Below, in pieces: positions 10,750-54,879 of a stretch of 64,000 bases of DNA. Source of the DNA: Candidatus Oxydemutatoraceae bacterium (GTDB lineage Bacteria > Pseudomonadota > Gammaproteobacteria > Poriferisulfidales > Oxydemutatoraceae); NCBI GenBank assembly GCA_965218975.1, contig OZ244717.1, forward strand, positions 338,347 to 402,346, given 5' to 3'. The notes beneath the pieces are model-generated. The model was given only the letters and a program-made list of their open reading frames with translations, was not told where the DNA came from and did no database searches. How positions within the stretch are numbered: position 1 is the first letter of the stretch; every line of letters begins with the position of its first letter. Made by a program: the position numbers and the translations under genes.

Positions 10750-13700
10750 GTATTCCGTAGCTATATGCTACGGCCTCATTGAAGCATCTCCATTTTATAC
10801 GCGGCAGAATTACCGCGTGATGTATTCCGTAGCTATATGCTACGGCCTCATTGAAGCGATATGGCCACATTCGGCGATGAGGACGATGACATCAGTATTC
10901 CGTAGCTATATGCTACGGCCTCATTGAAGCTAGAAGTAGTGGTTTTATACCTTGATAGAAGTTTTGTTGTATTCCGTAGCTATATGCTACGGCCTCATTG
11001 AAGCCGACACTGTATGTGATCGCGAGCTACTCTGTGACACGTATTCCGTAGCTATATGCTACGGCCTCATTGAAGCGAGAATAATGAAAAGTAAGATGAA
11101 AACACCTGCTTATGTATTCCGTAGCTATATGCTACGGCCTCATTGAAGCTTTTGCAGCAAGCTGCTAAAATTATGATAACAGATTGTATTCCGTAGCTAT
11201 ATGCTACGGCCTCATTGAAGCTTCTAAGTTCGGCTTCCATCATTTGTTGAGCACCTGGTATTCCGTAGCTATATGCTACGGCCTCATTGAAGCATCTACA
11301 AGTCGCTCGCATCTCCGCACGTCATCGGCGTATTCCGTAGCTATATGCTACGGCCTCATTGAAGCAGCACCGGTAGTTTCTGTTGAAGAACTTGCTATGA
11401 AGTATTCCGTAGCTATATGCTACGGCCTCATTGAAGCCAATGCCAAAGACCTAATGCACCATGTCATTAGATGTATTCCGTAGCTATATGCTACGGCCTC
11501 ATTGAAGCATCGACCAGCCGCTCGCATTTCTGCACGTCATCGGCGTATTCCGTAGCTATATGCTACGGCCTCATTGAAGCGAGATAACCGTCAGTAATTC
11601 CGCAAAGAATTTTGTGGTATTCCGTAGCTATATGCTACGGCCTCATTGAAGCGATTACTTGGGCACAAGAAACGAAAGCAGCATATCGTATTCCGTAGCT
11701 ATATGCTACGGCCTCATTGAAGCGAATTTTCAAGCGTTTGCGTGTACCAGATATGCCGGGTATTCCGTAGCTATATGCTACGGCCTCATTGAAGCCGTAC
11801 AGGCAGTCACGCATCGGAGATCGGCATCGCGGTATTCCGTAGCTATATGCTACGGCCTCATTGAAGCGAGAGGTTAGCTGCACCTGCCGACTGGAAAGAA
11901 TCAAGTATTCCGTAGCTATATGCTACGGCCTCATTGAAGCTCGAGTTATCTTCGCGTTAGTCGGGTCAAAAAATAGTATTCCGTAGCTATATGCTACGGC
12001 CTCATTGAAGCCTGCAATTCAACCTGCAAACCGTTTTTTACAATGCGGTATTCCGTAGCTATATGCTACGGCCTCATTGAAGCTGCCGCAAGTGTCGGGT
12101 TGCCGAAGTCGTTAAATGCGTATTCCGTAGCTATATGCTACGGCCTCATTGAAGCTTTACCCCGCTCCACAATGGCCATGATTGCTGCGTAGTATTCCGT
12201 AGCTATATGCTACGGCCTCATTGAAGCTGCGGGTCGCCGACGCAAGAAAAAAGGTTGCATTAGGTATTCCGTAGCTATATGCTACGGCCTCATTGAAGCT
12301 TGGCGGGACGCAACTAAGTCGACCGAAGGGTTAGGTATTCCGTAGCTATATGCTACGGCCTCATTGAAGCTGGGCTGTACCCTGACGACTCCTGCGAATT
12401 TGATGATGTATTCCGTAGCTATATGCTACGGCCTCATTGAAGCGCGGTAAACGCTAACTCCATGTTCAGCTAATCGGCTGCGTATTCCGTAGCTATATGC
12501 TACGGCCTCATTGAAGCCTCACTGCCTTCGTTTCCTTCCAGCATAATTACAGCGTATTCCGTAGCTATATGCTACGGCCTCATTGAAGCTATATTTTTTT
12601 TCTACATCTTCCATGTTTTATCTCCGTATTCCGTAGCTATATGCTACGGCCTCATTGAAGCCCACGATTATCTTTGTGTTGCGAATGATTGCCGAGGTAT
12701 TCCGTAGCTATATGCTACGGCCTCATTGAAGCCGGTGTAAAATCATCCATCAAAATAACGGTCTTGCTGTATTCCGTAGCTATATGCTACGGCCTCATTG
12801 AAGCAAGAAATTGAACATCGGCTACAGCTATGATACCTGACGTATTCCGTAGCTATATGCTACGGCCTCATTGAAGCTGTTTTGTAGTAGTGCATTGTTA
12901 GCAGTTCGTTTGTGTATTCCGTAGCTATATGCTACGGCCTCATTGAAGCTTCTCCAATAACTGTTGGGTCAGGCACAAGGCCTGCGTATTCCGTAGCTAT
13001 ATGCTACGGCCTCATTGAAGCTAGTAAGATCATTAGTTCTGCTGTTTTGAGATTCCGGTATTCCGTAGCTATATGCTACGGCCTCATTGAAGCTGCAAGA
13101 GCTAATTGAAGGTGGAAAAAATGGCAGGTGTATTCCGTAGCTATATGCTACGGCCTCATTGAAGCAACGTTACACAGAATTAGTTGTATAGACTTATTAG
13201 GGTATTCCGTAGCTATATGCTACGGCCTCATTGAAGCCCACGATTATCTTTGTGTTGCGAATGATTGCCGAGGTATTCCGTAGCTATATGCTACGGCCTC
13301 ATTGAAGCCGGTGTAAAATCATCCATCAAAATAACGGTCTTGCTGTATTCCGTAGCTATATGCTACGGCCTCATTGAAGCTCATTGACTCGGGATATGGA
13401 CGTCCTCGATTCTTTAGTATTCCGTAGCTATATGCTACGGCCTCATTGAAGCTATGCAAAAGATACCGAAGAATACAATAATTTGAAGTATTCCGTAGCT
13501 ATATGCTACGGCCTCATTGAAGCTTTGAAGATCAATATGTATTCAATCGTTAAGTTGGGGTATTCCGTAGCTATATGCTACGGCCTCATTGAAGCACATT
13601 GGATAGTGCTGCGATTGAGCCTTTTATGAGAGGTATTCCGTAGCTATATGCTACGGCCTCATTGAAGCCCATTCTCCAAAGCTGCCGCGAGAAACCCGTT

Positions 13701-15981
13701 CCCGCGTATTCCGTAGCTATATGCTACGGCCTCATTGAAGCTCTACGGTGATCTGACCGAGCACTTCCAACTCAGCGTATTCCGTAGCTATATGCTACGG
13801 CCTCATTGAAGCTACGCAGCGGTACGGCGTCTCGGAGCCGCACACTTGGGTATTCCGTAGCTATATGCTACGGCCTCATTGAAGCGAGGCAGCTTTGTCC
13901 ATTTGCTGGAGCCGCACGCGGTATTCCGTAGCTATATGCTACGGCCTCATTGAAGCCGGTGTAAAATCATCCATCAAAATAACGGTCTTGCTGTATTCCG
14001 TAGCTATATGCTACGGCCTCATTGAAGCTCATTGACTCGGGATATGGACGTCCTCGATTCTTTAGTATTCCGTAGCTATATGCTACGGCCTCATTGAAGC
14101 TATGCAAAAGATACCGAAGAATACAATAATTTGAAGTATTCCGTAGCTATATGCTACGGCCTCATTGAAGCTTTGAAGATCAATATGTATTCAATCGTTA
14201 AGTTGGGGTATTCCGTAGCTATATGCTACGGCCTCATTGAAGCACATTGGATAGTGCTGCGATTGAGCCTTTTATGAGAGGTATTCCGTAGCTATATGCT
14301 ACGGCCTCATTGAAGCCCATTCTCCAAAGCTGCCGCGAGAAACCCGTTCCCGCGTATTCCGTAGCTATATGCTACGGCCTCATTGAAGCCTCACTGCCTT
14401 CGTTTCCTTCCAGCATAATTACAGCGTATTCCGTAGCTATATGCTACGGCCTCATTGAAGCTATATTTTTTTTCTACATCTTCCATGTTTTATCTCCGTA
14501 TTCCGTAGCTATATGCTACGGCCTCATTGAAGCGCGGATGATAATTTGTGCAATTCCCTCATTTGCCTTAAGTATTCCGTAGCTATATGCTACGGCCTCA
14601 TTGAAGCCCGGAAGTTAAAGTCCCCATGTCCGCAGTTAAAGCGGAGTATTCCGTAGCTATATGCTACGGCCTCATTGAAGCGGCTCGGCAATTTCAGTCA
14701 TCAAATCTTTATAACTCGTATTCCGTAGCTATATGCTACGGCCTCATTGAAGCATGATGGTGTTTTAGCACCGTCATGAATGATGTTAAGTATTCCGTAG
14801 CTATATGCTACGGCCTCATTGAAGCTTGTTGCAGTATTTATTTTTATCTCGCTTGTCATGTTGTATTCCGTAGCTATATGCTACGGCCTCATTGAAGCTG
14901 GTAAGCACATTCGACTCAACCATGGCTTTCCTCACGTATTCCGTAGCTATATGCTACGGCCTCATTGAAGCTGTGTGGCGGAATGTCCCTTTTGGGTATA
15001 GTTTATCCGTATTCCGTAGCTATATGCTACGGCCTCATTGAAGCAGCGAAGAAGCCGATGAGGCAGGCGTATATATAGTGTATTCCGTAGCTATATGCTA
15101 CGGCCTCATTGAAGCGACCGCTGTAACTACGACCTGTCACATTACATAATGTATTCCGTAGCTATATGCTACGGCCTCATTGAAGCGGTGCTTTACTCAC
15201 GCATTCAAGGAATCCGGCGCATGTATTCCGTAGCTATATGCTACGGCCTCATTGAAGCAAATCTCCGTTGTTGTGGTGCCGGCAAGAGCGCCGGGTATTC
15301 CGTAGCTATATGCTACGGCCTCATTGAAGCAACCTTTGCATCTGGGGATAAAAAACAGTACTGGAATGTATTCCGTAGCTATATGCTACGGCCTTATTGA
15401 AGCATTGCAAATCATCCATATACGGATAAGGAAACAAAGTATTCCGTAGCTATATGCTACGGCCTCATTGAAGCTTTGGCTTCTATTGTTCTGCGCGGTT
15501 CGGGTACGCATGTATTCCGTAGCTATATGCTACGGCCTCATTGAAGCCCAACTATTTGGTCAACACCTATCAACCCAGAAATAAGTATTCCGTAGCTATA
15601 TGCTACGGCCTCATTGAAGCGACTCAACGCTAATGACGCATACGGCAAAGCCGGATGTATTCCGTAGCTATATGCTACGGCCTCATTGAAGCGGCGTTGG
15701 GTAAATCTCAGCTAGTGCGTAAAGTGCACGTATTCCGTAGCTATATGCTACGGCCTCATTGAAGCGATTTTCTAAGTCAGGAAGCTCCAACCCGCAACAT
15801 AGGTATTCCGTAGCTATATGCTACGGCCTCATTGAAGCAAGCCGCTGTTATATCGAGTGGTCAAGGAGTGAGTGGTATTCCGTAGCTATATGCTACGGCC
15901 TCATTGAAGCTTTTCGTTATTGGGACGCAAGTCATTCCAGGAGACGTATTCCGTAGCTATATGCTACGGCCTCATTGAAGC
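10750..15981 (+). CRISPR. CRISPR array, ~73 repeats of 36 bp (GTATTCCGTAGCTATATGCTACGGCCTCATTGAAGC) with ~35-37 nt spacers
   Basis: A perfect 36-bp direct repeat recurs at ~72-73 bp periodicity, with an internal 7-bp palindrome CCGTAGC-TATAT-GCTACGG. The 3' 'ATTGAAGC' end resembles the I-C/I-G 'ATTGAAAC' handle. The leader is cas2-proximal. One repeat (15368-15403) carries a C>T variant. Confidence 0.97.
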
Positions 15982-16905: not shown

Positions 16906-17826
16906 TCAAGCTACCAATTGTTCATAAGTAATCGTCTTCCCAACCATGGCCTTAAAGAGATCATCAAGTCTGTCCTGTGTATCACGTTTCACATTGCCTT
17001 CATTAAGTCTGAATGTAAACTCATTTACATATTGTTGACAATGCTTCTTGCTCCAATTGTGGTAAACACCATTGAAGCCACGTTTAATCACTGACCATAC
17101 AGATTCAACTCCATTAGTATGCGCCATCCCGTTAACATATTCTCTTGCTGAATGTTTTACGCTTTCATGCTGATAATAGTCGCCTCCAATATCTTTATAA
17201 CCCTTGTGGTCATCCGTATAAATGGTGGTACCCACTTCAATGTTAGCAAGAACAGCACTATGAATAGTAGCCTTGTCTTCACCTTCAACTGGCATAGCTT
17301 TTACACGGCCTTCCCGTTCTCTCATACCCAGCACAGCCTGCTTTCCCACAGTACCGCGTCCGGCCTTGAGTTTCTTATGAGAGTGTTTATTCTTTTCAGC
17401 CCTACCAATATAGGTGGCGTCCATTTCCACTTCACCACTCAAGGCTTCAAGATTGTTGCCGCAAGCTAAACGTAGCCTATGCAGCATGTACCAGGCTGTC
17501 GGATAGCTAACGTCCAGTTCCTTGCTTAATTGCATGGCGGAAATACCTTTACGGGCGGTCATAAGCAGATACGCTGCAAATAGCCACATACGGGCATCAC
17601 GCACCCTGTTATGTTCAAGTGGGGTTTCTGTGAAAGCATTGAAATATCCGCGACAATCGCCGCACCAATAACCTTTCTTGTAGTTCTTTTGCTTGGTGAT
17701 TCTGCCGGTACAGCCGCATTTGACACATACAGGCTTAGTTCCCCATCTAAGCTGCTCAAGCTTCGGCAAAAATGTTTTCAAGGGCAATTTCATAATTGGA
17801 CTCTTTTGGCGATAGACCCCGTTCAA
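16906..17826 (-). CDS. IS1595-family (ISXO2-like) DDE transposase
   Basis: N-terminal zinc ribbon 'CVKCGCTGRITKQ...CGDCRGYF', a 'TAWYMLHRLR' helix and a DDE core 'IYTDDHKGY...HTNGVESVWSVIKRGFNGVYHNWS' are present. The start may be the second Met (17793). Confidence 0.8.
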   Translation of the reverse strand: MNGVYRQKSPIMKLPLKTFLPKLEQLRWGTKPVCVKCGCTGRITKQKNYKKGYWCGDCRGYFNAFTETPLEHNRVRDARMWLFAAYLLMTARKGISAMQLSKELDVSYPTAWYMLHRLRLACGNNLEALSGEVEMDATYIGRAEKNKHSHKKLKAGRGTVGKQAVLGMREREGRVKAMPVEGEDKATIHSAVLANIEVGTTIYTDDHKGYKDIGGDYYQHESVKHSAREYVNGMAHTNGVESVWSVIKRGFNGVYHNWSKKHCQQYVNEFTFRLNEGNVKRDTQDRLDDLFKAMVGKTITYEQLVA

Positions 17827-18298: not shown

Positions 18299-19201
18299 TC
18301 AATTCTTTCCATCTTCAGCGGCTTTGACTGCATCAACAACGTCATCAGCAAGTCGACGAAGTTCAACATATTCAAGCACTGCTAGTTCTCGAGAACCGCC
18401 GATAAAGCAAATCTCCCGGCATACATCTAGCACTTTGCCGGCAGGCGGCAGTTTGCCGCTACTTTCATTGTCGTCGGGAAGAAATCTTGTGAGACTCGCC
18501 GCCACGGCTTCTTGGACCGAAGCTATTCCAAAAACGGGATTCCTGGATACCATTGCAGATACAAACCATTCCCAGTGGGCTTTTGTTTGCCGAAGTATTT
18601 TTCCTATCCGGTCTTTCGCTATCCCGGATTGTATCTCGGCTCGCCGAACTAGCCGCTCCCGCCACCAAGCTCTCGCAAACGGACAATCAACAAGAACACT
18701 TTTGTTCCCCCGAACATGAGGCAATCCACCCAGTTGGCGTAGAACCGAACGCACGCAGTTGTCCGTTTGCTCTTTTCTTTTAGGGTTCTCGTTGGCCATT
18801 ATCCTGTCAATACGCTCTGCGCCTGTTTGTGATGCGATCCCATTACTTGCGAGGAAACTCGGTTCGATTCGACCTTCCCGAACGTGGCACATAGTGACAT
18901 GAGTCCAAAATAATGTGCTTGAGGCAATCGACAAAGAAAGGTTATTCCAGAGATCGTACATCTTGGATTCAGTGCTAGCTGGGGGATCCTTGAATTGCGC
19001 CTCGCTCATCTTGACCTGATACAGATCGGGATCAATCAAACCAGAAACCGGAATCTGCTCCATAGTTTTGATGAATGCTTCCCCGTCTCTGATCTCTTGA
19101 AGAAATGCCTCTTGTTTTTCGCTACCTTTCTCGCTAAGCAAATTCGCCCGGAATTTGGCCCACTCTTTGTCGTCAAGACATTTCCAATCAAGTTCACTCA
19201 T
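18299..19201 (-). CDS. Hypothetical protein (300 aa) in the GHKL/desulfurase operon
   Basis: Its start overlaps the upstream stop (ATGA at 19198-19201). No family recognised. Confidence 0.55.
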   Translation of the reverse strand: MSELDWKCLDDKEWAKFRANLLSEKGSEKQEAFLQEIRDGEAFIKTMEQIPVSGLIDPDLYQVKMSEAQFKDPPASTESKMYDLWNNLSLSIASSTLFWTHVTMCHVREGRIEPSFLASNGIASQTGAERIDRIMANENPKRKEQTDNCVRSVLRQLGGLPHVRGNKSVLVDCPFARAWWRERLVRRAEIQSGIAKDRIGKILRQTKAHWEWFVSAMVSRNPVFGIASVQEAVAASLTRFLPDDNESSGKLPPAGKVLDVCREICFIGGSRELAVLEYVELRRLADDVVDAVKAAEDGKN

Positions 19202-20087
19202 CTTCGTGCCTCAATGGTGGGGGTACATCATGCGGATAAAGCAGCGTTGCAGCCTCCTCAGGTCTGAAATCCGGATCTTCCCAATTACAATTAGTGCAGC
19301 CTTTCGTTTCCAGATCATTGGCAAGCGATTCTAGAGCTTTGTAACTGCACCATCCTTCTTCACTATCTCCGTCGGAATCCTTGTATTTCCGTTGCAGTGC
19401 AGAAAAGCACGAAGTCACGACATGAGTCATAATGTCCTTGCGTTTATCCGAATAGTGCCCTTTGTCTTGAAGAAAAGTATAAAGAGCTGGACCACAATGT
19501 ACTACGAAGCGGAACGTGTCTCCATCAACAGCCTCTGTATAAAATTGGCCTTGCTTTAAGCTTTCGTCCGACCAAATAGAAATGAGTCCTTGAAGACCTG
19601 ATGCCCCAAGATTAAATACCGGCCCCTGCGCAAGCCAAGCACCCTTCGGAAATATTACTTCCAAACCATTCCAGTCGGGATGTACATCATCCTTTTCAGA
19701 ATCCAGAGTACAGAATATTTCCCGGATGCATACAATTACTGGAGTGAAGTACGGAGGCTCACCAAAGTTTGTGTTATTCCAAGCAATTTCCTGGGTCGGA
19801 TCTTGAGAACACTGAAGTTCCCGATACGCCGAGCGAGGCGCGGCCAAAGAACAAGCATACCGGGCATGTTTTTGCGCAATCAGTCGCTCGACCAGACGGG
19901 CACCCGTCACCGAATGCGTTAGCAAGAAGCGGCTTTTGTCGGAACTAAACCTATGTTGAACCTGACTATGTTGAACCTGATAATTGCCATTCGGGAAGGC
20001 ATCATTGCCTTCCTCAATTGCCGGATAATTACGCGCCAGAATCGCGTTCGCCCCGGGGGCGCTCTTGGCGTTGATGTCGGTATTCAT
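19194..20087 (-). CDS. Hypothetical Cys-rich protein (297 aa) in the GHKL/desulfurase operon
   Basis: A 4-bp overlap with the upstream GHKL gene. The C-terminal 'GWCSYK...KGCTNCNWEDPD' may be a zinc-binding cluster. Confidence 0.55.
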   Translation of the reverse strand: MNTDINAKSAPGANAILARNYPAIEEGNDAFPNGNYQVQHSQVQHRFSSDKSRFLLTHSVTGARLVERLIAQKHARYACSLAAPRSAYRELQCSQDPTQEIAWNNTNFGEPPYFTPVIVCIREIFCTLDSEKDDVHPDWNGLEVIFPKGAWLAQGPVFNLGASGLQGLISIWSDESLKQGQFYTEAVDGDTFRFVVHCGPALYTFLQDKGHYSDKRKDIMTHVVTSCFSALQRKYKDSDGDSEEGWCSYKALESLANDLETKGCTNCNWEDPDFRPEEAATLLYPHDVPPPLRHEDE

Positions 20088-22051
20088 TCTGAAGTGCTTA
20101 TGGTGGGCTTAGTATCATCGGAGGGTCTCTTGCCAATCTCCACTCGGAGACTTGCTCCGGATTGGATAGGGACACCATCGGCTGCCAGTTTATATTCGGC
20201 CTCTACTTCGGTCGTAGTATTCTTTCCAAGATTGCCCAGCAAAATAGCAGGATAGGGTTTGGTAATTATTCTATCCGGCTGAATCGTTTTTCCATTGACC
20301 TTCGCCGCGGTGATTGCGGCAACACGATCAGTCCATATACGCTCAGTCGTTACATCCGAATGATCATCAACAACGAGACGGAGTTCCAGATCTTCACAAG
20401 GCTCAATGCAATGGATCCGGATTTTCCGGCGATTTGAAGCCGATGGAGTAACAACGATCTTAAAATATTGCGGCAAGGTCGGCCTTTCCCGAGAGCCGCT
20501 CCGGCTACTTTGCCGTCTTTTCCCGGTATTCTTGCTTCGGCCCTTGTTCCTGCCACCTGTCGTTCCCCCGGGCCCTGTTTCATGTGGTCGCCGTGAGGAT
20601 ATCCGTCTCTTAATCAGCGCGATTGTGCCCTGATATTCCCGACCGGCTTTTTTTCCTTGTCGGCTTCCGGCGGTGCTATCAGGGAAGACCAAGAAGTCGT
20701 CAGGGCTATACTCGTCAGAAGTAAGTTTTGGTATTACCTCTTCGATTTTCTTTTTAATCACATTAAATGCCTGACGTAGCTGCTTCCAGTCCTCGTTGCT
20801 GATAGCCTTCTTATCAAGCCGATTGTGTAGAGGCCCCTCAGCTTTTCCAATAAGATCGTGGAACCGGCGGGGCGCGCTCTTTGCGGAAACCAGAACCAAA
20901 CCTTCAAAGGCCTCATAGTCTGCAAAGTTAAAACCGGGAATGTTGCCGGTAATCCACATACCGTTCCTGCAAAGATTTACTCGCGTTCGCCCTGAAGGCG
21001 CCGGATGCTGAACGAAAAGTCTTACCGAGCCATCCAGGACCTCAACTTCATGGCGATAACCTCCTCGGTAGGCTTGATAGGCAAAAAATGCCTGTTCGCC
21101 CGGGAGATAGTCCTTTTTCCGTTTTTGTTCCCGATATTTCTCCAGAACAGTCTGCAACTGCTCACTCGTAAGTTCCCGCTGGGGCTTATTGCCCTCGCCT
21201 TCAATAACCACCTCGAGCTGCCCATCAGCTATTGCGACAAAAAAACTACAGGCAATAGCCTCCGGTACGGTATCAGATAGAAAATCCTTATCCTTACTAC
21301 GAAAACGGTTGAATGCAGGAACGATAACGGCAGTCCCATGTCCGGAATCCTTCTCAATATCCGCCAAAGCGTTTTTAATCAATATCGGAAGGTCATTTCC
21401 CCACGGGTATATGTATTCTCTTTTTTTGCGATCAACCAAGTAATAACCGTTAGCGCTCCGCCCTGTGTCGTCGCTCTGGTTAGCATAATGGGATGCGAGA
21501 ATTGCGTGGCCGCTTGCAATCCGTTTCCCGTTGCAAATACCACCGTAGAGTACATACCTGAGATCTGAGGCGGGAAATAACGAAAAATGCCCAACGCCGA
21601 AGGTACCGGACGCTCCACTTTCCTTGCGACTTCTGCCGTCCGACAATAATGCCGTCATTCTGTCTTTGTCGAGGCCAATACCATTGTCCGAAACAATAAG
21701 TGCCTGCTGCCAATCTTGTGATAGCGCTTCAGAGATTCTGTCAGCCACAATTTGCTCCTGATCATTGAGCGAACCGTTGTTTTCCTCCTCACGCCTTTTC
21801 ACTGCTTTCTTAAAAGCGGATTTATAACTCTCAATTCCAGGTATATCTTCGGTTTTTACCTCCGTAGTAGAAAAACGTACTATAGCCCTAGCCTCACGAA
21901 CCCCAGTGTAATGGAGGGCGGCGGCGGCATCCAGAGAATTTTGGATCAGCTCGCGCACAATTGCGAACGAACTCATCTCTCGGAAGCTGCTAATGCTAGC
22001 AGCCGTAAATCCGTAAGAGTCACTCGATTTGAAAAAATAAAGATCTGTCAT
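20084..22051 (-). CDS. GHKL-superfamily (MORC/MutL/Hsp90-like) ATPase, 655 aa
   Basis: Bergerat-fold motifs are 'VRELIQNSLDA' (N box), 'VSDNGIGLDKD' (G1) and 'GTFGVGHFSLF' (G2). There is a basic low-complexity linker and a C-terminal domain. The ORF overlaps the desulfurase stop by 4 bp. Confidence 0.8.
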   Translation of the reverse strand: MTDLYFFKSSDSYGFTAASISSFREMSSFAIVRELIQNSLDAAAALHYTGVREARAIVRFSTTEVKTEDIPGIESYKSAFKKAVKRREEENNGSLNDQEQIVADRISEALSQDWQQALIVSDNGIGLDKDRMTALLSDGRSRKESGASGTFGVGHFSLFPASDLRYVLYGGICNGKRIASGHAILASHYANQSDDTGRSANGYYLVDRKKREYIYPWGNDLPILIKNALADIEKDSGHGTAVIVPAFNRFRSKDKDFLSDTVPEAIACSFFVAIADGQLEVVIEGEGNKPQRELTSEQLQTVLEKYREQKRKKDYLPGEQAFFAYQAYRGGYRHEVEVLDGSVRLFVQHPAPSGRTRVNLCRNGMWITGNIPGFNFADYEAFEGLVLVSAKSAPRRFHDLIGKAEGPLHNRLDKKAISNEDWKQLRQAFNVIKKKIEEVIPKLTSDEYSPDDFLVFPDSTAGSRQGKKAGREYQGTIALIKRRISSRRPHETGPGGTTGGRNKGRSKNTGKRRQSSRSGSRERPTLPQYFKIVVTPSASNRRKIRIHCIEPCEDLELRLVVDDHSDVTTERIWTDRVAAITAAKVNGKTIQPDRIITKPYPAILLGNLGKNTTTEVEAEYKLAADGVPIQSGASLRVEIGKRPSDDTKPTISTSE

Positions 22052-23202
22052 GCTACTGCTACTCCTTCACCAAACTGCCGTTCAAACGCAAGAGCGGCAA
22101 GCATAATATCCTCCTCTGTGGTAAACCGGCCTAGGCTAATACGGACCGCCTGAAGCGCCGACAAAGGCGGTTGTCCGAGGGCCGTTAAAACATGAGACGG
22201 TTCAACCCCTCGTGACGAACAGGCAGAACCCGTTGAAATCGCCACGCTCCCTTCAAGCCCGGCAATTACTTCATCTCCGGATATCCCCGGAAACGACACA
22301 TTTAAACTTCCCGGTACACGTTGATATTTGTGCCCGTTCAGTTGAAGCCCTGGCGCGCTTTTCTGCAGTAACTGCCATAGCCGGGAAGTCAGTTTCCTGA
22401 TACGTAACGAATCCTTTTCTGTCTCATTCAACGCAATTTCACATGCCGCACCAAAGCCAACAACGAGATGTACGGGCAAGGTGCCGGGACGTAAGCCGCG
22501 CTCCTGACCACCTCCTGTAGCAACCGGCCCGATGCGATCAAAAGTATCGTTGTGGACATAGAGGACCCCAATCCCCATCGGGCCATATACTTTGTGCGAG
22601 GATAACGACAACAGGTCGATTCCAAGCGAATCGACATCAATTCCTATTTTTCCGGCGGCTTGGGTTGCATCCGTATGCATTAACGCACCATGCTCATGGG
22701 CAATCGACGCAATCTCGGCAACCGGATGAACAACTCCAATTTCGTTATTAACCAGCATAGCGGATACTATCGCAGTCTTATCGCTGATCGCATCTTGCAT
22801 TTCGTCCATATCCATAATGCCGTCCGGATTCACCCCGATCTTGCGGATAGGAACTCCATCCAAACCCAATGCTCGAACTGTTTCCAAAACTGCCGGGTGC
22901 TCGGTAGCTACAGTAATAATCTCGTTACGGCCAGTGCTTCTCTTGATCGTGCCTCGAAGCGCAATGTTGCAGGATTCCGTTGCGCCGGAAGCAAAAATAA
23001 TTTCTTGGTCGTCTGCGCCTAACAGGGCAGCTACCTGAGCACGACCTTCAGCTACGGCCCGCGCCGCATTCCATCCATAGGCATGATGGATTGCATGGGG
23101 ATTCCCAAAACGCTCTTGCAGAAAAGGCTGCATGGCATCTCGAACCCGGGGGTCAAGCGGAGTGGTGGCCTGGTAGTCCAGATACACCGGTGCAGAAGCC
23201 AT
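22048..23202 (-). CDS. Cysteine desulfurase (class V PLP aminotransferase; IscS/NifS/DndA/SspA-like)
   Basis: PLP-lysine motif 'SSHKVYGPMGIGVLYV' and active-site Cys loop 'STGSACSS'. The likely start is 'MASAPVYLDYQATTPLD' at 23202. The longer listed ORF to 23274 overlaps the upstream gene. Confidence 0.85.
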   Translation of the reverse strand: MASAPVYLDYQATTPLDPRVRDAMQPFLQERFGNPHAIHHAYGWNAARAVAEGRAQVAALLGADDQEIIFASGATESCNIALRGTIKRSTGRNEIITVATEHPAVLETVRALGLDGVPIRKIGVNPDGIMDMDEMQDAISDKTAIVSAMLVNNEIGVVHPVAEIASIAHEHGALMHTDATQAAGKIGIDVDSLGIDLLSLSSHKVYGPMGIGVLYVHNDTFDRIGPVATGGGQERGLRPGTLPVHLVVGFGAACEIALNETEKDSLRIRKLTSRLWQLLQKSAPGLQLNGHKYQRVPGSLNVSFPGISGDEVIAGLEGSVAISTGSACSSRGVEPSHVLTALGQPPLSALQAVRISLGRFTTEEDIMLAALAFERQFGEGVAVA

Positions 23203-23206
23203 ATGT

Positions 23207-24568
23207 TTAGTCAGTGCAATCACATGGCAACATGGCCTTGGTTTCAGTGAGCGCTTGGACTCCGCGGTCCGCAATGTTTCGGTAAGTCATCTTGCTGTTC
23301 GTTCCAAAGAAACCGACTGTACCGTCAATGCCTCGTTGTTCTGCTGTCAAATCCCGAGTGTAGGTATCCTCTATACGAGCCCACCAAGCGACATCCATCG
23401 GTGTGTTCTGCTGACTGTTAGGTAAATCTGCCTCGCATTCCGAATGAATACTCTCATAAACCTTAGTCAGGTTTGATGTTCCCTTGAGAAAACAGTAAAC
23501 ACAATTGGACAGATGCCCGGTCGCGGGGAGTTTCAATTCAAAATCCTTGTTTTTCCGCCAGAATGCCTTAACGTCTTCTTTTTTTACACACATGTCTGAA
23601 AGCGGCATATAGACATGTTCTCCTTCATACTCCCGAACCTCAGAACTGCCCGAGATTCTCGCTTCGACACGTTGCACACGTGCCTCTTCATCTCCCCTCA
23701 ACCCGATAAAAGCGACATATTGCACTCCACCCTCGCCAAATACAGCATTCCCCCCATACGCTTTCCCATCCAAGAGCTTACTGTCCATGGCGTCTGATGC
23801 TGTCGAAAAATCCTTATAACGTTGCTCCGGACGACATACCGGCTGTGACATCACAAATTTCTTCTTGGCCAGAAAAATATCTCTTGGGACCCCGCCATTA
23901 TTGCGACGGTGGCGTTGATAAAGCGTTTCCTCATCAACCTGGGGCTTATTCTCCCAATGGCCAAGACGAGGAATGATTTTTTTGCAGGCCAGCCAGTCGC
24001 GCAGAAACATTCGTGTTGTCTCAAGTTTCAGAGTTGCTGTGCAGGTCCGGCGGAACTGGTTGGGAACATACCCTGACCACGACAACATCTCCTCAAAGAC
24101 CTCGCCCCTCCAGCAGTAACCATCCGGGTTATTTTCCGAACGAGGCTTGGCATTCACTAGCCGATAGGAAGGCAAACGAGTCCAGTCGCCGTTGCGCACA
24201 TCTTCATAGGTTTGATACTCGATCAGAAAAAATGGAATTCCGTAGCAAGATTCTGCTCGTTTCTTGCATTGGGCTACAAAGTCATAGGTGGCCGGATGTT
24301 CGGCAGCAGTATTGTTAAAGAGTATGACATCACCGCGCTCGGCCTTTAGTACACGGTTTTCCAGCAGAGTAAACAAAAGCATTCCGCTGGATCGACCGCC
24401 GGAGAATTTGACAACGTGAGGAAAATTCTCGTGCCTTTTAGACCGATATCGAAACTGATACTCGAACTCCGGATCGTATTTTTTTGGTTTGCGAAGGCGT
24501 TTCGAAACTACTAGCTTGGGAATTCCTTTTACAGAATGTTTAACAAGATTTTCTACAACGGTCTGCAT
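23207..24568 (-). CDS. PAPS-reductase-family PP-loop ATP pyrophosphatase (DndC/SspD-like), 453 aa
   Basis: PP-loop 'VVKFSGGRSSGMLLF', 'FNNTAAEHPATYDF', and a C-terminal Cys cluster 'MLPCDCTD'. Confidence 0.7.
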   Translation of the reverse strand: MQTVVENLVKHSVKGIPKLVVSKRLRKPKKYDPEFEYQFRYRSKRHENFPHVVKFSGGRSSGMLLFTLLENRVLKAERGDVILFNNTAAEHPATYDFVAQCKKRAESCYGIPFFLIEYQTYEDVRNGDWTRLPSYRLVNAKPRSENNPDGYCWRGEVFEEMLSWSGYVPNQFRRTCTATLKLETTRMFLRDWLACKKIIPRLGHWENKPQVDEETLYQRHRRNNGGVPRDIFLAKKKFVMSQPVCRPEQRYKDFSTASDAMDSKLLDGKAYGGNAVFGEGGVQYVAFIGLRGDEEARVQRVEARISGSSEVREYEGEHVYMPLSDMCVKKEDVKAFWRKNKDFELKLPATGHLSNCVYCFLKGTSNLTKVYESIHSECEADLPNSQQNTPMDVAWWARIEDTYTRDLTAEQRGIDGTVGFFGTNSKMTYRNIADRGVQALTETKAMLPCDCTD

Positions 24569-25781: not shown

Positions 25782-26130
25782 TCATGCTACCAGTTTCTCA
25801 AACGTTACGGTCTTCCCAACCATGGCCTTAAACAGGTCATCCGGTTTGTCTTGTGTATCACGAGCAACATTGTCTTCATTCAGGCGAAAGGTGAACTCGT
25901 TGACGTACTGCCGGCAATGCTTCTTGCTCCAATTGTGGTAAACACCATTGAAGCTGCGTTTGATGAGCAACCATACAGACTCGACCCCGTTTGGTATGAG
26001 CCGTCCCGTTCACATACTCTCTGGCCGAATGGTTGACCTTTGCCTTTATACCCCCTGTAATCATCGGTGTAAGGAGTAGAGCCAAGCTCAATGTGCTCGC
26101 GGAATGGCATTGCTGGTCGTTTCATGGTCC
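25782..26130 (-). pseudogene. 5'-truncated, frameshifted remnant of an IS1595-family transposase
   Basis: The 62-aa ORF 'FNGVYHNWSKKHCRQYVNEFTFRLNEDNVARDTQDKPDDLFKAMVGKTVTFEKLVA' is ~85% identical to the C-terminus of the 16906-17826 transposase. An upstream 81-aa ORF in another frame matches the 'IYTDDHKGYK' region. Confidence 0.75.
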
Positions 26131-26544
26131 TCGGCCCGTATCGGCATGGCCTTTATATGGCCGCCACGCTCCTGCATCCCCAGCACGGCCCGTTCGTCTA
26201 CCGATCCTCGTCCAGCTTTCAGCTTCTTGTCCATGTGCTTGTTCTTTCATTTACGGGCATCCATGAGCTTGTTGTGCTCAAAAAGACTTAGCGTTTTAGC
26301 GTGTTTTCTAGACATCTTTCTTGTTCCTACAGAATATGAATTAATGCCTTTGAAGCCCCGCAACTTTGAAGAATATGGGCTAGTGATTATACACGCTTCG
26401 CTTCTGCTCTCCCGCTTCTCTCCTTACCTTTCTGCACAGGAGGCATGTCAACAGATGAGCCAACGACATGCCCTTCAAACTACCTCAATCGGTCGCAAGG
26501 CAGTGCCTTATTGGTCGTTCCCCCGTTCGCGGGTGCATAAGCTC

Positions 26545-27060
26545 AGAAACATTTGAAACCGTTTTGTGTTTGGTGGCAGATTGTCGGCGGATTGTGCCGG
26601 ATTATTGGTGGATTGTTGGTAGGTTGTGCCGGATTATTAGCAAAGTGCATGTCGTCCATGACGCGACTGGGTTCTGTCAACAAGCCCCAGCCCCGACATC
26701 CTTGTCGGGTCGTTCGCCGCTGAAAACCGTTCGGTTTTCCGGGCGCGGCTTACCCATGACGCGACTGGGTTCTGTCAACAAGCCCCAGCCCCGACATCCT
26801 TGTCGGGTCGTTCGCCGCTGAAAACCGATCGGTTTTCCGGGCGCGGCTTACCCATGACGAGACTGGGTTCTGTCAACAAGCCCCAGCCCCGACATCCCTG
26901 TCGGGTCGTTCGCCGCTGAAAACCGTTCGGTTTTCCGGGCGCGTCTCACCCGACAACGGACAGAAAGCACCGATCCGAATGTTGCTGCCGAATGCTTCCC
27001 CGGAAGCCCTTCAAGAATCCCATTTAGGGTGGCATCGTACATTCTTGACAAGCCCGCCGC
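26545..27060. repeat. Composite intergenic repeat locus R1: GGATTGTCGG-type short repeats, 3 tandem ~98-bp two-hairpin units, and a conserved ~110-bp tail
   Basis: The unit 'ATGACGCGACTGGGTTCTGTCAACAAGCCCCAGCCCCGACATCCTTGTCGGGTCGTTCGCCGCTGAAAACCGTTCGGTTTTCCGGGCGCGGCTTACCC' recurs three times. It carries hairpins CCGACA-tcct-TGTCGG and GAAAACC-gttc-GGTTTTC. Confidence 0.9.
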
Positions 27061-27166
27061 TTTCCCCTAACCTGAGCTTAAGTTACGAGGCGCAGGCCTT
27101 ATTCTTTACTCGCCCGCGGGGAGGATCCTCGCGGGGACCTTCCAGCGGTAACAACAGGAGACTATT

Positions 27167-27376
27167 ATGGAAATTACTGCTGAGAAATTTGAGCAGGAGC
27201 TTCAAAAGCTTGAACAGAGGCTTGAGCGAAAGTTTGATACGAAGCTTGATACGAAGTTTGATAAGCTCGAAGCCAAACTCGACTCGGTGAAGACTTGGTT
27301 TGTCGGTTTAATGGTCACTACCGTTTTAGTCGTGACCGCGTTGATGACAACATTCGTCAACATTAACATGAACTAA
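27167..27376 (+). CDS. Small membrane-anchored coiled-coil protein (69 aa), XhlA-like architecture
   Basis: A strong RBS (AGGAG) sits 7 nt upstream. The N-terminal heptad-like 'KFEQELQKLEQRLERKFDTKLDTKFDKLEAKLD' is followed by a single TM helix 'WFVGLMVTTVLVVTALMTTFV'. The gene sits between repeat loci R1 and R2. Confidence 0.5.
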   Translation: MEITAEKFEQELQKLEQRLERKFDTKLDTKFDKLEAKLDSVKTWFVGLMVTTVLVVTALMTTFVNINMN

Positions 27377-27487
27377 CCCGGGCATCACCGCCTATTCTTA
27401 AAACTTGGTTTCGCGTCTGCTCGCGAAATCCTACTCTAAATTGATGATACAAACCATGGGTTTTTATCCTTAGCCTGCCTATCAGCA

Positions 27488-27852
27488 TCGTTCGCCGCTG
27501 AAAACCGTTCGGTTTTCCGGGCGCGGCTCACCTGTTTTGTGTTTGGTGGTAGATTGTCGGCGGATTGTGCCGGGTTGTTGGTGGATTGTTGGTAGGTTGT
27601 GCCGGATTATTAGCAAAGTGCATGTCGTCCATGACGAGACTTCGTGCTGTTAATGAACCCCAGCCCCGACATCCTTGTCGGGTCGTTCGCCGCCCGCTAA
27701 AAAAGGTGGCACCGTTCGGTTTTCCGGGGCGCGGCTCACCCATGACGAGACTTGGTTCTGTCAATGAGCCCCAGCCCCGACATCCCTGTCGGGTCGTTCG
27801 CCGCTGAAAACCCCGCTGAAAACCGTTCAGTTTTCCGGGCGCAGCTCACCCT
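27488..27852. repeat. Composite repeat locus R2 (same family; head plus ~2.5 units)
   Basis: Same head ('gattgtcggcggattgtgccgggttgttggtggattgttgg...caaagtgcatgtcgtccatgacg') and same hairpin units as R1. Confidence 0.9.
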
Positions 27853-27909
27853 GCGGCGTCAGGGTGGGCCTTATCCGCACGTAGCGGTCAACCGTATATA
27901 GCGTCAGGC

Positions 27910-30455: not shown

Positions 30456-30584
30456 AAAGGCCAAACCAAAGCGGCCTTGCGGGTAGCCGCCGAAGAATAT
30501 CCCGCATACCCGGGATACACCGCCGCTTAGTCCATCATGCTAGGAAAGTGCGCATAAGGCAAAAATTGCCATTCAAAGATTGCA

Positions 30585-30701
30585 TGGGGCTGTCATAATT
30601 TACACACTTGATGTCGCGCGGGTGTCCTCCGCGGGATTGATCCGACCGCGAGGCAAAGTCAGGCTCCTGCGGGAGCTTCAAAGCAGCCGAGACACAACGG
30701 A
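30585..30701 (-). other. Conserved GC-rich ~115-nt element immediately 3' of the Sel1 gene (copy 1)
   Basis: 'gcgcgggtgtcctccgcgggattgatccgaccgcgaggcaaagtcaggctcctgcgggagcttcaaagcagccgagacacaacgg' with several short palindromes (GCTCCCGCAGGAGC). It is duplicated at 31335-31456. Confidence 0.5.
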
Positions 30702-31295
30702 TCAGCAATTCTTAAAGTTCTTCTTAATACATTCGCGAGCAAGGTCTTGCGCTTTAGAGATATCGGCAGAGGTCATTTTTTTTGCCATCGTCTCTCTTAA
30801 TTTTCTTCCGTCCTCAGCCCCGTTTGCGGAAGCGATGTTCGCCCACATATGGGCATAAACATTATCCTTTATTAACCCCCGACCTAAAGCATACATCAAA
30901 CCCAGATTATTTTGCGCGGACGCATGTCTCTGTCCGGCGGCGAGCCTGTACCATTTCACTGCCTCGCGATAATCTTGAGGAACACCGTCTCCGTTGCGAT
31001 ACATCACACCCAGACTGTGCTGCGCGTCCGCATGTCCCTGTTCGGCGGCGAGCCTGTACCATTTCACTGCTTGCCGACCGTCTTGAGGAACACCGTGTCC
31101 GTTGTCATACATCACACCCAGATTGTACTGCGCGGACGCATGTCCCTGTTCGGCGAGAGGCATCCACTTTTGCAGGGCGGTCGCAAAGTCTCGTTTTAGA
31201 GCGACATCCAACCCTTTCTGAAAATCAGCAGAATAGGCAAACGACCCGAATAAGAGTGCGAACAGTAAAATAGAAATGATAGACAGAGTTCTCAT
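30702..31295 (-). CDS. Sel1-repeat (TPR-like) secreted protein, 197 aa
   Basis: An N-terminal signal peptide. Repeated 'AQYNLGVMYDNGHGVPQDGRQAVKWYRLAAEQGHADAQ' Sel1 units. Confidence 0.8.
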   Translation of the reverse strand: MRTLSIISILLFALLFGSFAYSADFQKGLDVALKRDFATALQKWMPLAEQGHASAQYNLGVMYDNGHGVPQDGRQAVKWYRLAAEQGHADAQHSLGVMYRNGDGVPQDYREAVKWYRLAAGQRHASAQNNLGLMYALGRGLIKDNVYAHMWANIASANGAEDGRKLRETMAKKMTSADISKAQDLARECIKKNFKNC

Positions 31296-31334
31296 CCTTG
31301 GATTGTAATCCGAATAATGTTAACGGCGAAAAGA

Positions 31335-31456
31335 TTGTATGGAGCCGCTGTAGTTTACACACTCGGTGTTGCGCGGGTGTCCTCTGCGGGATTGACCCGC
31401 CCGCGAGGCAAAGTCAGGCTCCTGCGGGAGCTTCAAAGCAGCCGAGACACAACGGG
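31335..31456 (-). other. Conserved GC-rich 3' element (copy 2) downstream of the second Sel1 gene
   Basis: ~90% identical to copy 1. Confidence 0.5.
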
Positions 31457-32374
31457 TCAACAATTCTCAAAGTTCTTTACGATGCATTCGCGAGCAAGGT
31501 CTTGCGCTTTGGAGATATCGGCAGGGATCATTTGTTCCGCCATTATCTCTTTTAATTTTTCGCCGCTTTCATCGCCGTTGATGGAGCCGATGCTTCCCCA
31601 CATATAAGCATAAATATTATCTTTTGATAACCCTTTACCCAGAGCGTACATCAGGCCAAGTTTGGTCTGTGCTCTCGCATCCCCCTGTTCGGCAGCGAGT
31701 TGGTACCACTTTACCGCTTGCCGATTATCTTGGGGAATGCCGTCTCCGTTATAGTACATTGATGCAATATTGTACTGTGCCTTTGCATGCCCCTGTTCGG
31801 CGGCAAGTTGGTACCACTTTGCTGCTTGCCGACTGTCTTGAGAAATGCCGTCGCCGTTGTGATACATCACTGCCAGATTGGTCTGTGCGGTAACTCGTCC
31901 CTGTTCGGCGGCTAACCTGTACCATTTCACTGCTTGTCGACTGTCTTGAGGAATGCCGTCGCCGTTGTCGTACATCAACGCCAGATTAGTCTGTGCTAGC
32001 CCTTCTCCTTGTTCAGCAGCTCGCTCGTACCACCTCATCGCCTCGCGATAATCTTGAGGAACACCGTCGCCGTTGTAGTACATCCATGCCAGATTGGTCT
32101 GCGCTTTTACGTCTCCTTGTTCGGCGGCGAGCCTGTACCATTTCACTGCTTGCCGATCGTCTTGAGGAACGCCGTCGCCGTTGTCGTACATCACGCCCAG
32201 ATTGCACTGAGCCCTTGCATCTCCCTGCTCGGCGAGAGGCATCCACTCTTGCAGGGCGGTCGCAAAGTCTCGTTTTAGAGCGGCATCCAACCCTTTCTGA
32301 AAATCAGCGGAGTAAGCGGACACACCAAACAGGAGCGTATGCAGTAAAACAGAAACGACAAACAGAGATTTCAT
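31457..32374 (-). CDS. Sel1-repeat secreted protein, 305 aa (tandem paralog)
   Basis: A signal peptide plus ~7 Sel1 repeats. The C-terminus 'ISKAQDLARECIVKNFENC' is nearly identical to the 197-aa paralog. Confidence 0.8.
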   Translation of the reverse strand: MKSLFVVSVLLHTLLFGVSAYSADFQKGLDAALKRDFATALQEWMPLAEQGDARAQCNLGVMYDNGDGVPQDDRQAVKWYRLAAEQGDVKAQTNLAWMYYNGDGVPQDYREAMRWYERAAEQGEGLAQTNLALMYDNGDGIPQDSRQAVKWYRLAAEQGRVTAQTNLAVMYHNGDGISQDSRQAAKWYQLAAEQGHAKAQYNIASMYYNGDGIPQDNRQAVKWYQLAAEQGDARAQTKLGLMYALGKGLSKDNIYAYMWGSIGSINGDESGEKLKEIMAEQMIPADISKAQDLARECIVKNFENC

Positions 32375-32725
32375 ACTCGCATTGTAATCAAATAATTTTT
32401 GAACTGTAAAGAAATTGTATAGGCCCGCTATATATCACGCTTAAGTGAATTTTTTTTATCAATGACACGATATGAATTTGAATTTATACACCTTTTTCTA
32501 ATAATACGGCCTTTTTCATATAAAAATGATTGACATCAGGAATAGCGGCTTCCGGAAAAATGAGTCGCTTTCATCGCCAACATGAGCCGTCTAAGAAAGC
32601 CGGAACTTGAACGACGTCAGAGCGGCGACGCCCTTACAAACACCGAAGAGTTTGTAGACTTGATATATAGCAATTCCATCAAACAGATCGTTAAATTTCG
32701 TTGATAAGCGACCTGGTTTCTATAA

Positions 32726-41006: not shown

Positions 41007-41276
41007 ATTGAACAAGTGAAAACAGGATTTATTAGTTTAAGGTAATTGCTTAATTTTTTATATATTTTGCACGATGCCACCCTAAATGGGATTCTTGAAT
41101 AGCTTCGGGGGAAGCGTTCGGCAGAAAGCACCGATCCGAATGTTATGGTCCTATACATATTGTTGACATGCTGTTGTAAAGTCAATATACTTTGACGCAA
41201 ACCAAACAAGATGGCGCAACGCTTAGTGGCGTTACGGCGTTTAATAAAATACCCCGAATTCGAAGGAATGTAAGAT

Positions 41277-44420: not shown

Positions 44421-44844
44421 CGAACGTACTAGATATTTAAAAATATACACCGAGAGAATCTAAAATATATTAAATGGCGTCGTGCCGGTTCCGTCCGAAG
44501 AAATAACGGATGCCAATCTCGGTTATTCACCGTCTTTGGACTTCGTTTTTATCCCACGGCACATCGGAGAGGAAATAACGGATGCCAAGCTCGGTGATTC
44601 ACCGGGAATACGGTAATGATAGATTGGCTTACATTAGAGTCACCACAGAGTCACCACTAACTCATGGAGGGGCATTTTCCTTGTCGCAGGCTGCACAATT
44701 CACTAAGAATGCCGTCGCCGGATTGTGGCTGATCTTCTCCCACAAATTGAACACTATGCGAAGGGAAGCTCGGTGCAAAATAGCTCCGGAGGAAACGAAC
44801 CTCCCGAATAATCGGCCGTGTCTCCTTGAAGTTCAAATCAGAAA

Positions 44845-52560: not shown

Positions 52561-52745
52561 TGTTGTCGTTTAATGTATATTAGCAACCTGCTACAGCACT
52601 ACGTGTCCGCCCTGTCGGGCGGCCCGTGAATATAAAACCGTTCGAAAATAAGCGGGAATACTTCTTTACGTAGTGTTTGTAGCAATCGCCTGACTCCTTA
52701 AGTCAGGCGATTAAGCAGATTTAATTTAATCTATGGAGAAATATA

Positions 52746-54761: not shown

Positions 54762-54879
54762 AAGGTTGAGATATAGCGCATAAAATCCGTATTGTCGCCT
54801 AGAAATAGGCGGCAATACGGTTTATCAGTGTATGCTGCTTTAAGAGAGACCTGCGCAAGTGTTTTTGTGTGGGTCACTC

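Follow-up and report, generated by a model that had tools for sequence, protein, structure and literature searches.

A modular intergenic repeat family with two-hairpin tandem units at the seams of a bacterial defence island

Small intergenic repeats are common in bacteria and are mostly unexplained. REP/BIME elements are GC-rich, imperfect palindromes of 30–40 nt in extragenic DNA, often in 3' regions and inside operons; they form mosaic clusters and have been linked to recombination, protein binding, and mRNA stability (PMC3184786, PMC3116915). BRE (Hot et al. 2011) are intergenic repeats of ~75–91 bp with GC-rich hairpins and are richer in GC than their surroundings. They occur singly or in head-to-tail arrays of up to 8, with a unit number that varies between strains, at a few to a few dozen loci per genome, and they are conserved across families of a proteobacterial class (PMC3110155). 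BOX elements reach ~640 bp and lie near promoters and terminators (PMC3049150), and MIRU are tandem units of 40–100 bp at dispersed intergenic loci, including inside operons (PMC3184786). NIME and Correia elements form mosaic intergenic arrays at sites of genome plasticity and are implicated in recombination (pilE/pilS), and some carry promoters (PMC3049150, PMC3184786). Here, we describe a repeat family in a 64-kb stretch of DNA ("the window") from a Candidatus Oxydemutatoraceae bacterium (contig OZ244717.1, positions 338,347 to 402,346). The repeat is ordinary in kind: it is probably one of the modular ("mosaic"), non-coding repeats between genes, of a kind with REP/BIME, BOX, or BRE, and not a MITE (miniature inverted-repeat transposable element) or a gene. 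It is best called a member of this general kind of bacterial intergenic repeats that belongs to no named family.

Each copy of the family, or block, consists of a head followed by tandem units of ~98 bp (with two hairpins per unit, each with a 7-bp stem) and, optionally, a tail of ~90 bp. The original prediction of a dispersed composite repeat family with conserved hairpins was borne out when we read the loci, ran Tandem Repeats Finder, and scanned for the modules. It had listed four loci, and these stand, with new limits (read from the sequence) for three of them: R1 (26561–27041), R3 (51911–52547), and R4 (54868–55119). R2 (27488–27852) begins with a half unit, and R3 contains two head-plus-unit blocks, so there are five blocks in all and not four. 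Every module copy is on the + strand. The arrays have 1.7 to 3 units per block (1.5–3.5 had been predicted), and some of the units are 67 bp instead of ~98 bp. The predicted shared parts are present as well, except that the tail is not common to all four loci: full tails are present at R1 and R3 and absent at R2 and R4.

In the module scan (approximate matching across the window), we found 11 copies of hairpin 1 (query CCCCGACATCCTTGTCGGGTCGTTCGCC, with up to 2 mismatches), 11 copies of hairpin 2 (query GCTGAAAACC-n4-GGTTTTCCGGGCGCGGCTCACC), nine leaders, five heads, and the two full tails. One further copy of hairpin 2, damaged by indels, lies near 27692–27739 in R2. A sensitive self-BLAST of the window found no other copy of the family; beyond the blocks, the only match was a tail fragment. 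This fragment had been predicted at 41095–41150; it does exist, but it lies at 41068–41144 and the larger part of it is inverted. Matches between copies extend for 60–230 nt at 90–100% identity, which excludes chance similarity. The repeats are 57–58% GC, as compared to 48% for the window.

Part of the unit is also found in other organisms. The core of hairpin 1, CCAGCCCCGACATCC(C/T)TGTCGGGTCGTTCGCC (32–34 nt; also given as CCAGCCCCGACATCCCTGTCGGGTCGTTCGCC, or as CCCCGACNTCCNTGTCGNGTCGTTCG in the form of a scan pattern), has matches in four metagenome contigs from JGI (L005–L008), which represent three high-GC genome contexts. What is found outside is the first half of the unit (~70 nt), with a core that is 94–100% identical and always intergenic. 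L005 (69% GC) has 3.1 tandem units of 95 bp (6338–6628) that are 68–77% identical to the window's units over 83–286 nt; this array lies between thiS and thiG, antisense to both. (After the array comes GGCTCACCC; this is where thiS ends, with Gly-Gly-stop, on the opposite strand, and it is not a conserved end of the unit.) L007 (65% GC) has a single copy, identical to an R1 unit at 34 of 34 positions, that follows the stop codon of a ubiH-like gene and precedes an intrinsic terminator. At 1019–1087 of L007, the core is followed by GTTCGCCGCATGCGGCGAAC and by a CCCCGCCGCAGCGGGG-U6 terminator, which together look like a three-hairpin small RNA (sRNA). L008 and L006 (58–63% GC) have one copy in common, 60 nt from a tRNA-Phe gene; in L008, the copy diverges from the tRNA gene. 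Both of these contigs end in or next to the copy, as expected for a multi-copy repeat that breaks assemblies.

A search with a covariance model of 13 copies returns 11 copies in the window and six foreign ones, and none in ~110 kb of other loci. All 17 of the 17 copies that we found, in the window or elsewhere, are intergenic. The core CCAGCCCCGAC-TCC-TGTCGGGTCGTTCGCC hardly varies at all among the sources, and it is near-identical between a genome of 48% GC and contigs of 58–69% GC. The presence of the first half-unit in several contigs implies that these ~70 nt are an old, widely distributed, and sequence-conserved element. The family is not confined to the window, as plain local tandem duplication would have it. 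Other searches were negative: a 43-nt degenerate unit and hairpin 2 had no exact-pattern match in 185,579 species genomes, hairpin 2 had none in the JGI metagenomes, hairpin 2, the tail, and the core had none in IMG/VR, and R1 and the core had no BLAST match among plasmids. The element is also absent from randomly fetched loci around yaaA and fadE in relatives (L001–L004 and L009–L018). YaaA and FadE from the nearest other organisms are only 59–73% identical, which leaves this lineage without a close relative in the collections. No paper turned up in a literature search for the core sequence.

The hairpins are conserved in sequence, and a constraint on their structure is not supported. Among the 11 units in the window, 90.9% of the alignment cells pair, with zero compensatory pairs, and there are likewise zero compensatory pairs among 13 copies from four sources. 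Stems that are invariant in sequence and lack compensatory changes indicate conservation at the sequence level. The original prediction had argued for constraint on structure from two variants. One was the swap of the hairpin-2 loop from GTTC to AGTA, which we confirmed in three copies (one in R3 and two in R4; GATC also occurs); the stem of hairpin 2 is constant in sequence while its loop varies (GTTC, GATC, or AGTA). The other was the CGACG/TGTCG form of the first stem, which does not support the argument: it is a one-sided A-to-G change that gives a G.T pair on the + strand only and is not compensatory. Similarly, a TGTCGAG variant of stem 1 breaks a pair on the + strand, and stems 1 and 2 tolerate G-to-A changes on the - strand only; overall, the one-sided changes favor neither strand. 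An outer extension of the stem (GCCGC/GCGGC) is broken in 6 of 11 copies. As to the stability of the folds, a two-unit stretch has z = -3.9 and single units have z of about -2, while the head alone and the tail alone fold like shuffled sequence (z between +0.35 and -0.9). No Rfam family reaches its gathering score in the window except CRISPR-DR16 (the CRISPR repeats), and permissive Rfam scans of the repeat loci gave chance-level matches only. A coding repeat is ruled out: the length of the unit is not divisible by 3, the heads differ by indels, and a 529-amino-acid composite of six-frame peptides from the repeat had no match among 5.8 billion proteins. This last result is uninformative as to copy number.

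Among the described systems, BRE are the closest in behavior: the repeat here is likewise GC-rich, ~90 bp, intergenic, single or tandem, and present in distant genomes. The sequences are unrelated. The published Bordetella list reads TTTTTTGCCGCCGGGCGCCCAAGGCAAAAAGCCCCCTCGGGGGGCAGC... and differs throughout, and the supplements of the BRE paper contain none of four sub-strings taken from the core (TGTCGGG, CCCGACA, GTCGTTCGCC, and GGCGAACGAC) (PMC3110155). BRE also lack the phased short-repeat head and the tail module that are present here, and they are betaproteobacterial, whereas the host here appears to be gammaproteobacterial. "REP-like", a term used in the original prediction, is a fair description of the repeat's appearance, as it has a GC-rich imperfect palindrome of 32–34 nt in extragenic DNA. 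However, the GTAG/CTAC that lies beside the palindrome in REP and REPIN is absent; in the 13-copy alignment, the flanks are CCAGC and TCGTTCGCC. The inverted doublets of REPINs are absent too, as the 11 copies in the window are all on the + strand and the three copies in L005 are all direct. And unlike the REP unit, the repeat here is ~98 bp and has two different hairpins. No RAYT (Y1 HUH transposase) was found among the open reading frames of the window that were scanned with Pfam.

The layout of BOX elements in Streptococcus, with a head, a variable number of tandem middle modules, and a tail, is also found at R1 and R3. BOX elements and the repeat here both have long open frames on both strands that are not genes, but BOX elements have terminal inverted repeats (boxA and boxC) and target-site duplications (PMC3049150), which the repeat here does not, and the host differs. 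With MIRU it shares the habit of intergenic tandem units, and its copies in the window are co-oriented with the flanking genes, but MIRU are unrelated in sequence and carry short frames that overlap the stop or start codons of their neighbors, which these units do not. With NIME it shares the mosaic intergenic habit only. NIME units are bracketed by 20-bp inverted repeats. Correia elements have inverted repeats of 26 bp on either side (PMC3049150). The blocks here are not bracketed in this way. Finally, integron attC arrays have one palindromic site per cassette, together with IntI and attI, whereas here we see multi-unit arrays and no integrase in the window.

Heads begin with a GTTTTGTGTTTGGTGG-like sequence, continue with about 5–6 GGATTGT-like repeats spaced at 10–11 bp, and end in a linker, GCAAAGTGC(A/C)TGTCGTCC. 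Units consist of a variable leader of 35 nt; hairpin 1 (CCCGACA, a loop of TCCT or TCCC, and TGTCGGG); TCGTTCGCC; hairpin 2 (GAAAACC, a loop of GTTC, GATC, or AGTA, and GGTTTTC); and CGGGCGCG(G/T)CTCACC(C). The 67-bp units are derivatives without the first 31–33 nt (the leader), and the endpoints of these deletions have CCCAG in common.

The head of R1 (26561–26655) has the GTTTTGTGTTTGGTGG start, about six of the GGATTGT-like repeats, and the linker AGCAAAGTGCATGTCGT; its array (26656–26951) has 3.0 units of 98 bp with TCCT in hairpin 1 and GTTC or GATC in hairpin 2 (96% matches between units, according to Tandem Repeats Finder); and its tail (26952–27041) has two sub-modules, T1 and then T2, and ends 126 nt upstream of the gene for a 69-amino-acid protein (27167). 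In R2, a leading half unit with just the hairpin-2 part (27488–27533) is followed by a head (27534–27628) and by two units of 111–112 bp (27629–27852; 27629–27851 in Tandem Repeats Finder, 111 bp x 2.0), in which insertions have damaged or duplicated the 5' arm of hairpin 2. The junction from the half unit to the head is the same as the junction inside R3. There, the first head (51911–51995) is followed by two units with a period of 106 bp, which includes a CTGTCGT linker (51996–52201; 51988–52201 in Tandem Repeats Finder, 106 bp x 2.0), and with the A-to-G variant of the hairpin-1 stem. The second head (52202–52290) is a variant with an internal GCAAAGTGC, and the second array (52291–52457) has one full unit with the AGTA loop and one 67-bp unit with the GATC loop (52322–52457 in Tandem Repeats Finder, 67 bp x 2.0). 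The R3 tail (52458–52547), which is followed by a promoter-like site, ends 199 nt upstream of a gene for a 671-amino-acid repeat protein. In both R1 and R3, the last unit joins the tail at the identical position and the tail ends with GGTGGCATCGTACA, after which the two sequences diverge. R4 has a head (54868–54952) that starts ~45 nt past the terminator-like hairpin of the upstream gene (54784–54823) and an array (54953–55119) of one full unit and one 67-bp unit with the AGTA loop (54984–55119 in Tandem Repeats Finder, 67 bp x 2.0, 100% matches); it has no tail and abuts the upstream region of yaaA.

Overall, the data show that the arrays expand, contract, and homogenize locally and that a 67-bp deletion derivative has been duplicated again. 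Neighboring units differ little or not at all (96% identity in R1 and 100% for the two 67-bp stretches of R4), which is the pattern left by local slippage or unequal exchange. Between loci, R1 and R2 are 93% identical over 160 nt and 65–70% identical to the other blocks. The second block of R3 and R4 are 92% identical over 231 nt and 63–64% identical to the other blocks, and they also share the odd head, the 67-bp unit, and the AGTA loop, which is confined to these two blocks. The tail regions of R1 and R3 are 93% identical. Thus, the blocks that flank each single-gene cassette are each other's closest relatives (92–93% identical), and in both cassettes the order is block, tail, promoter region, gene, block.

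All four loci lie at intergenic seams of accessory or defence modules, as had been predicted, and the copies are co-oriented with the flanking genes. R1 separates a methyltransferase and an insertion sequence (IS) remnant from the 69-amino-acid membrane protein, R2 separates that protein from a type II restriction-modification system, R3 separates a type III methyltransferase from the 671-amino-acid repeat protein, and R4 separates the repeat protein from yaaA. In the window there are a type I-G CRISPR-Cas system, an SspA/DndA-like module with candidate defence genes, a PDC-M19A candidate defence gene, methyltransferases, a TdeIII-type restriction-modification pair, and a type III restriction-modification system, as well as one IS1595 copy and one truncated remnant, an AcrB-type efflux pump, Sel1 proteins, and minor pilins. 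In three relatives (L002, L003, and L004), the gene order is smc-zipA-ligA-yaaA-mpl-fadE-thiolase, with a ligA-yaaA spacer of 140–170 nt and no repeat. In the window, yaaA-mpl-...-fadE-thiolase is kept, but yaaA is preceded by R4 and accessory genes. The ligA-yaaA synteny breaks at R4, which places this block exactly on the boundary of a large variable region. It sits between the terminator-like hairpin and a weak promoter-like site.

The genes next to the blocks have some features of their own. The 69-amino-acid protein (27167–27376) has a coiled-coil N-terminus and a C-terminal membrane helix; it has no Pfam or NCBIfam family match, and the label "XhlA-like" is supported only by a weak PHROG hemolysin match (E = 0.004). 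The 671-amino-acid protein (52746–54761), in the cassette between R3 and R4, has 4.9 tandem repeats of 369 nt (123 amino acids) that are 88% identical, and at its N-terminus it has a weak, below-cut-off similarity to a type IV minor pilin (ComGD model, E = 6e-10). A weak match to the pilin model ComP_DUS prompted us to consider whether the repeat might be a DNA-uptake sequence, and we dropped this idea, as no 9–12-mer is enriched outside the repeats. The IS1595 family is represented by one intact transposase gene (16906–17826) and by a frameshifted and truncated remnant (25785–26264) that includes residues 135–306 only and is 55% identical in amino acids and 79% identical in DNA (over 261 nt).

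The three copies of the tail are each 125–200 nt upstream of a gene on the + strand, and for two of the three, a strong promoter-like site begins 6–20 nt after the tail. These sites are TTGGCA-17-TATATT after the R3 tail (52553–52581, 10 of 12 matches) and TTGACA-17-TATACT after the orphan tail (41163–41191, 11 of 12 matches), with a gene downstream at 41277. After the R1 tail there is a weak match only (TTGACA-17-TAACCT), which we found by eye and which is not listed by the promoter scan. These three cases, which are too few for a conclusion, hint at a promoter-proximal role, or an insertion preference, for the tail. The orphan tail is itself rearranged: T2 is inverted (41068–41127, 90% identical over 60 nt) and T1 is direct (41122–41144, 23 of 23), so, with respect to T2, the 21–23-nt T1 segment (AAAGCACCGATCCGAATGTT) points the opposite way from that in R1 and R3. 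In R1, the T1 segment is bracketed by short inverted repeats (CGGACAG ... CTGCCG), and the orphan tail resembles the product of a small inversion that such repeats mediate.

How might such a family arise? That a 32–34-nt core is conserved in sequence across very different genomes points to a specific protein partner, and we propose that the core is conserved because a trans-acting protein recognizes it. This would most plausibly be a REP-type or HUH-type transposase or another DNA-binding enzyme, which would seed new copies; slipped-strand or unequal exchange would then build the arrays. Dispersed direct copies would provide portable homology, and recombination between them would insert, duplicate, or delete the cassettes that lie in between. 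For example, a circle carrying one block and a cassette might be inserted by a single crossover, or a duplication might be followed by conversion. The layout of block, tail, promoter, gene, and block may be the outcome of such recombination between direct copies, and a role as a recombination hotspot is plausible as judged from the sequences. A bolder version, which we consider improbable, is that the core is the recognition site of a HUH/RAYT-type enzyme or recombinase that moves units across distant Gammaproteobacteria, with the blocks acting as landing pads: at the seams of defence islands, they would capture single-gene cassettes that carry a promoter.

Several points weigh against viewing the family as a REP-, BOX-, or BRE-like mosaic repeat with a recombination role. 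Our copy counts for the source genome cover the 64-kb window only. The proposed role in recombination comes from patterns of similarity in one genome. All copies are direct and lack GTAG, unlike the usual REP/REPIN. Among the Pfam-scanned open reading frames of the window, we found no transposase, RAYT, or integrase able to act on the element, and the only IS elements are the IS1595 copy and the remnant. The near-identity of the core across genomes of differing GC could reflect a function at the RNA level or recent horizontal spread. Finally, the head, hairpin 2, and the tail have no match outside the window in the collections that we searched; these modules look lineage-specific, and part of the architecture may be a local invention.

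The main rival explanation, which is itself unlikely, is a structured RNA: the unit or hairpin 1 might be an sRNA or an element of 3' untranslated regions, an RNA stabilizer, or a mimic of a ribosome-binding site, and tandem copies would multiply its effect. The loop of hairpin 1 is pyrimidine-rich (UCCU, UCCC, or CUCCCU) and resembles an anti-Shine-Dalgarno sequence, the hairpins are stable, the loop of hairpin 2 varies while the stem does not, and the copies in the window have the same orientation as the flanking genes. The three-hairpin, U-tailed unit in L007 weakly resembles the Burkholderia sRNAs anti-hemB (31.9 bits) and Hrs13 (21.8 bits), which carry CAUCCCUGU or UCCCUG in a hairpin loop, but these scores are far under the gathering thresholds of 49.5 (anti-hemB) and 52. 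The absence of any covariation and the lack of a favored strand among the one-sided stem changes also argue against an RNA. Nor is the orientation relative to transcription consistent (the array in L005 runs antisense to thiS-thiG, and in L008 the copy is divergent from its tRNA gene), and R4, which lies between a terminator-like hairpin and the next promoter-like site, may be poorly transcribed. The alternative that the blocks are recombination sites (att-like or attC-like), at which an enzyme encoded elsewhere inserts a tail, promoter, and gene between direct copies, would explain why the layout of block, tail, gene, and block occurs twice with flanking blocks that are 92–93% identical. It also fits with the identical unit-to-tail junctions at R1 and R3, with the setting in a defence island and at its edge, and with a core that is conserved in sequence like a protein-binding site. 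We nevertheless consider it quite unlikely: the window has no integrase or recombinase, the blocks are long and variable tandem arrays instead of single defined sites, the signatures of integron attC sites are not evident, and elsewhere the element sits in ordinary operons without cassettes. Furthermore, homologous recombination gives the same layout without a dedicated enzyme.

Two simpler accounts fare worse. Plain local duplication, in which the loci are leftovers of segmental duplications in the island and there is no wider family, is consistent with the neighboring loci being the most alike, with all of the copies having the same orientation within 28 kb, and with the absence of the head, hairpin 2, and the tail from every collection searched. 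But the first half of the unit is found, single and in tandem, in four foreign metagenome contigs, two of which end inside or next to the element as if it were a multi-copy repeat, and the orphan tail lies 11–14 kb from the nearest blocks in another context, so we view this account as very unlikely. The original prediction had offered a MITE/REP-like element as one reading; that the family is a MITE is largely refuted and is the most doubtful account of all. The family is dispersed, modular, and rich in secondary structure, it has related copies in different contexts in other organisms, and an IS1595 remnant adjoins R1; however, the remnant stops ~250–300 bp before R1 and has no sequence in common with it. 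An inverted-repeat search of all of the loci found no terminal inverted repeats, just the internal hairpins and the terminator-like hairpin of an upstream gene, and the heads and tails show no complementarity. By direct reading, none of the five blocks is flanked by short direct repeats that match, so there are no target-site duplications. The repeats are also GC-rich (relative to the window) and not AT-rich, the ends of the blocks differ among loci (with or without a tail, or with a half unit at R2), and only ~34–70 nt are in common with the copies in other organisms, instead of a whole element. Lastly, some short words are similar to the inverted repeats of Tn21, to the nick site of IncP, and to DnaA boxes, but these matches are only 6–7 nt, and we dropped them.

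The window has further features of note. A CRISPR array (10750–15981) has 73 repeats of GTATTCCGTAGCTATATGCTACGGCCTCATTGAAGC (Rfam CRISPR-DR16) and adjoins type I-G cas genes (Cas3, Cas8g2, GSU0053, Csb2, and a Cas4-Cas1 fusion). Two multi-spacer segments of the array are duplicated exactly: 12480–12661 is the same as 14352–14533 (182 nt, 100%), and 13269–13568 is the same as 13917–14216 (300 nt, 100%). On the - strand, the region 18299–24568 encodes an SspA/DndA-like cysteine desulfurase (E = 2e-140), PDC-M33A/B candidate defence proteins, and a weak SspD-like open reading frame with the SGGRSS motif of PAPS reductases; together, these may form a defence module of the DNA phosphorothioation type, with an unusual composition. 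Two neighboring genes for Sel1-repeat proteins (30575–32400, - strand), with repeats of 108 nt, have duplicated upstream parts (30575–30874 versus 31330–31629, 83% identical). Direct repeats of 36 nt (44497–44532 and 44569–44604; 92% identical and 72 nt apart) lie just upstream of, and overlap, the start of a small open reading frame that precedes the type III res-like gene (44845–47433). The 3' end of the res-like gene (47137–47268) is duplicated 1.58 kb downstream (48716–48848; 97 nt at 95% and 39 nt at 85%), with a DUF488/PDC-M19A candidate defence gene (47415–48389) between the two copies. This duplication could be what is left of a second res gene or of a rearrangement.

To the known kinds of small intergenic repeats, this family adds a clean modular architecture, with a phased short-repeat head, a two-hairpin tandem unit, and a promoter-adjacent tail. 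If an enzyme does recognize the core and move the units, with the blocks capturing cassettes, then the family would be a REP-like mobile system of a new sequence class that has a role in cassette capture. Near-identical copies bracket single-gene cassettes at the seams of a defence island, and if these copies mediate the gain or loss of cassettes, they would help explain how defence islands are assembled in a lineage that has no obvious integrases at such seams. If they do not, the number of units would still be usable for strain typing, and the family is a likely cause of breaks in assemblies.

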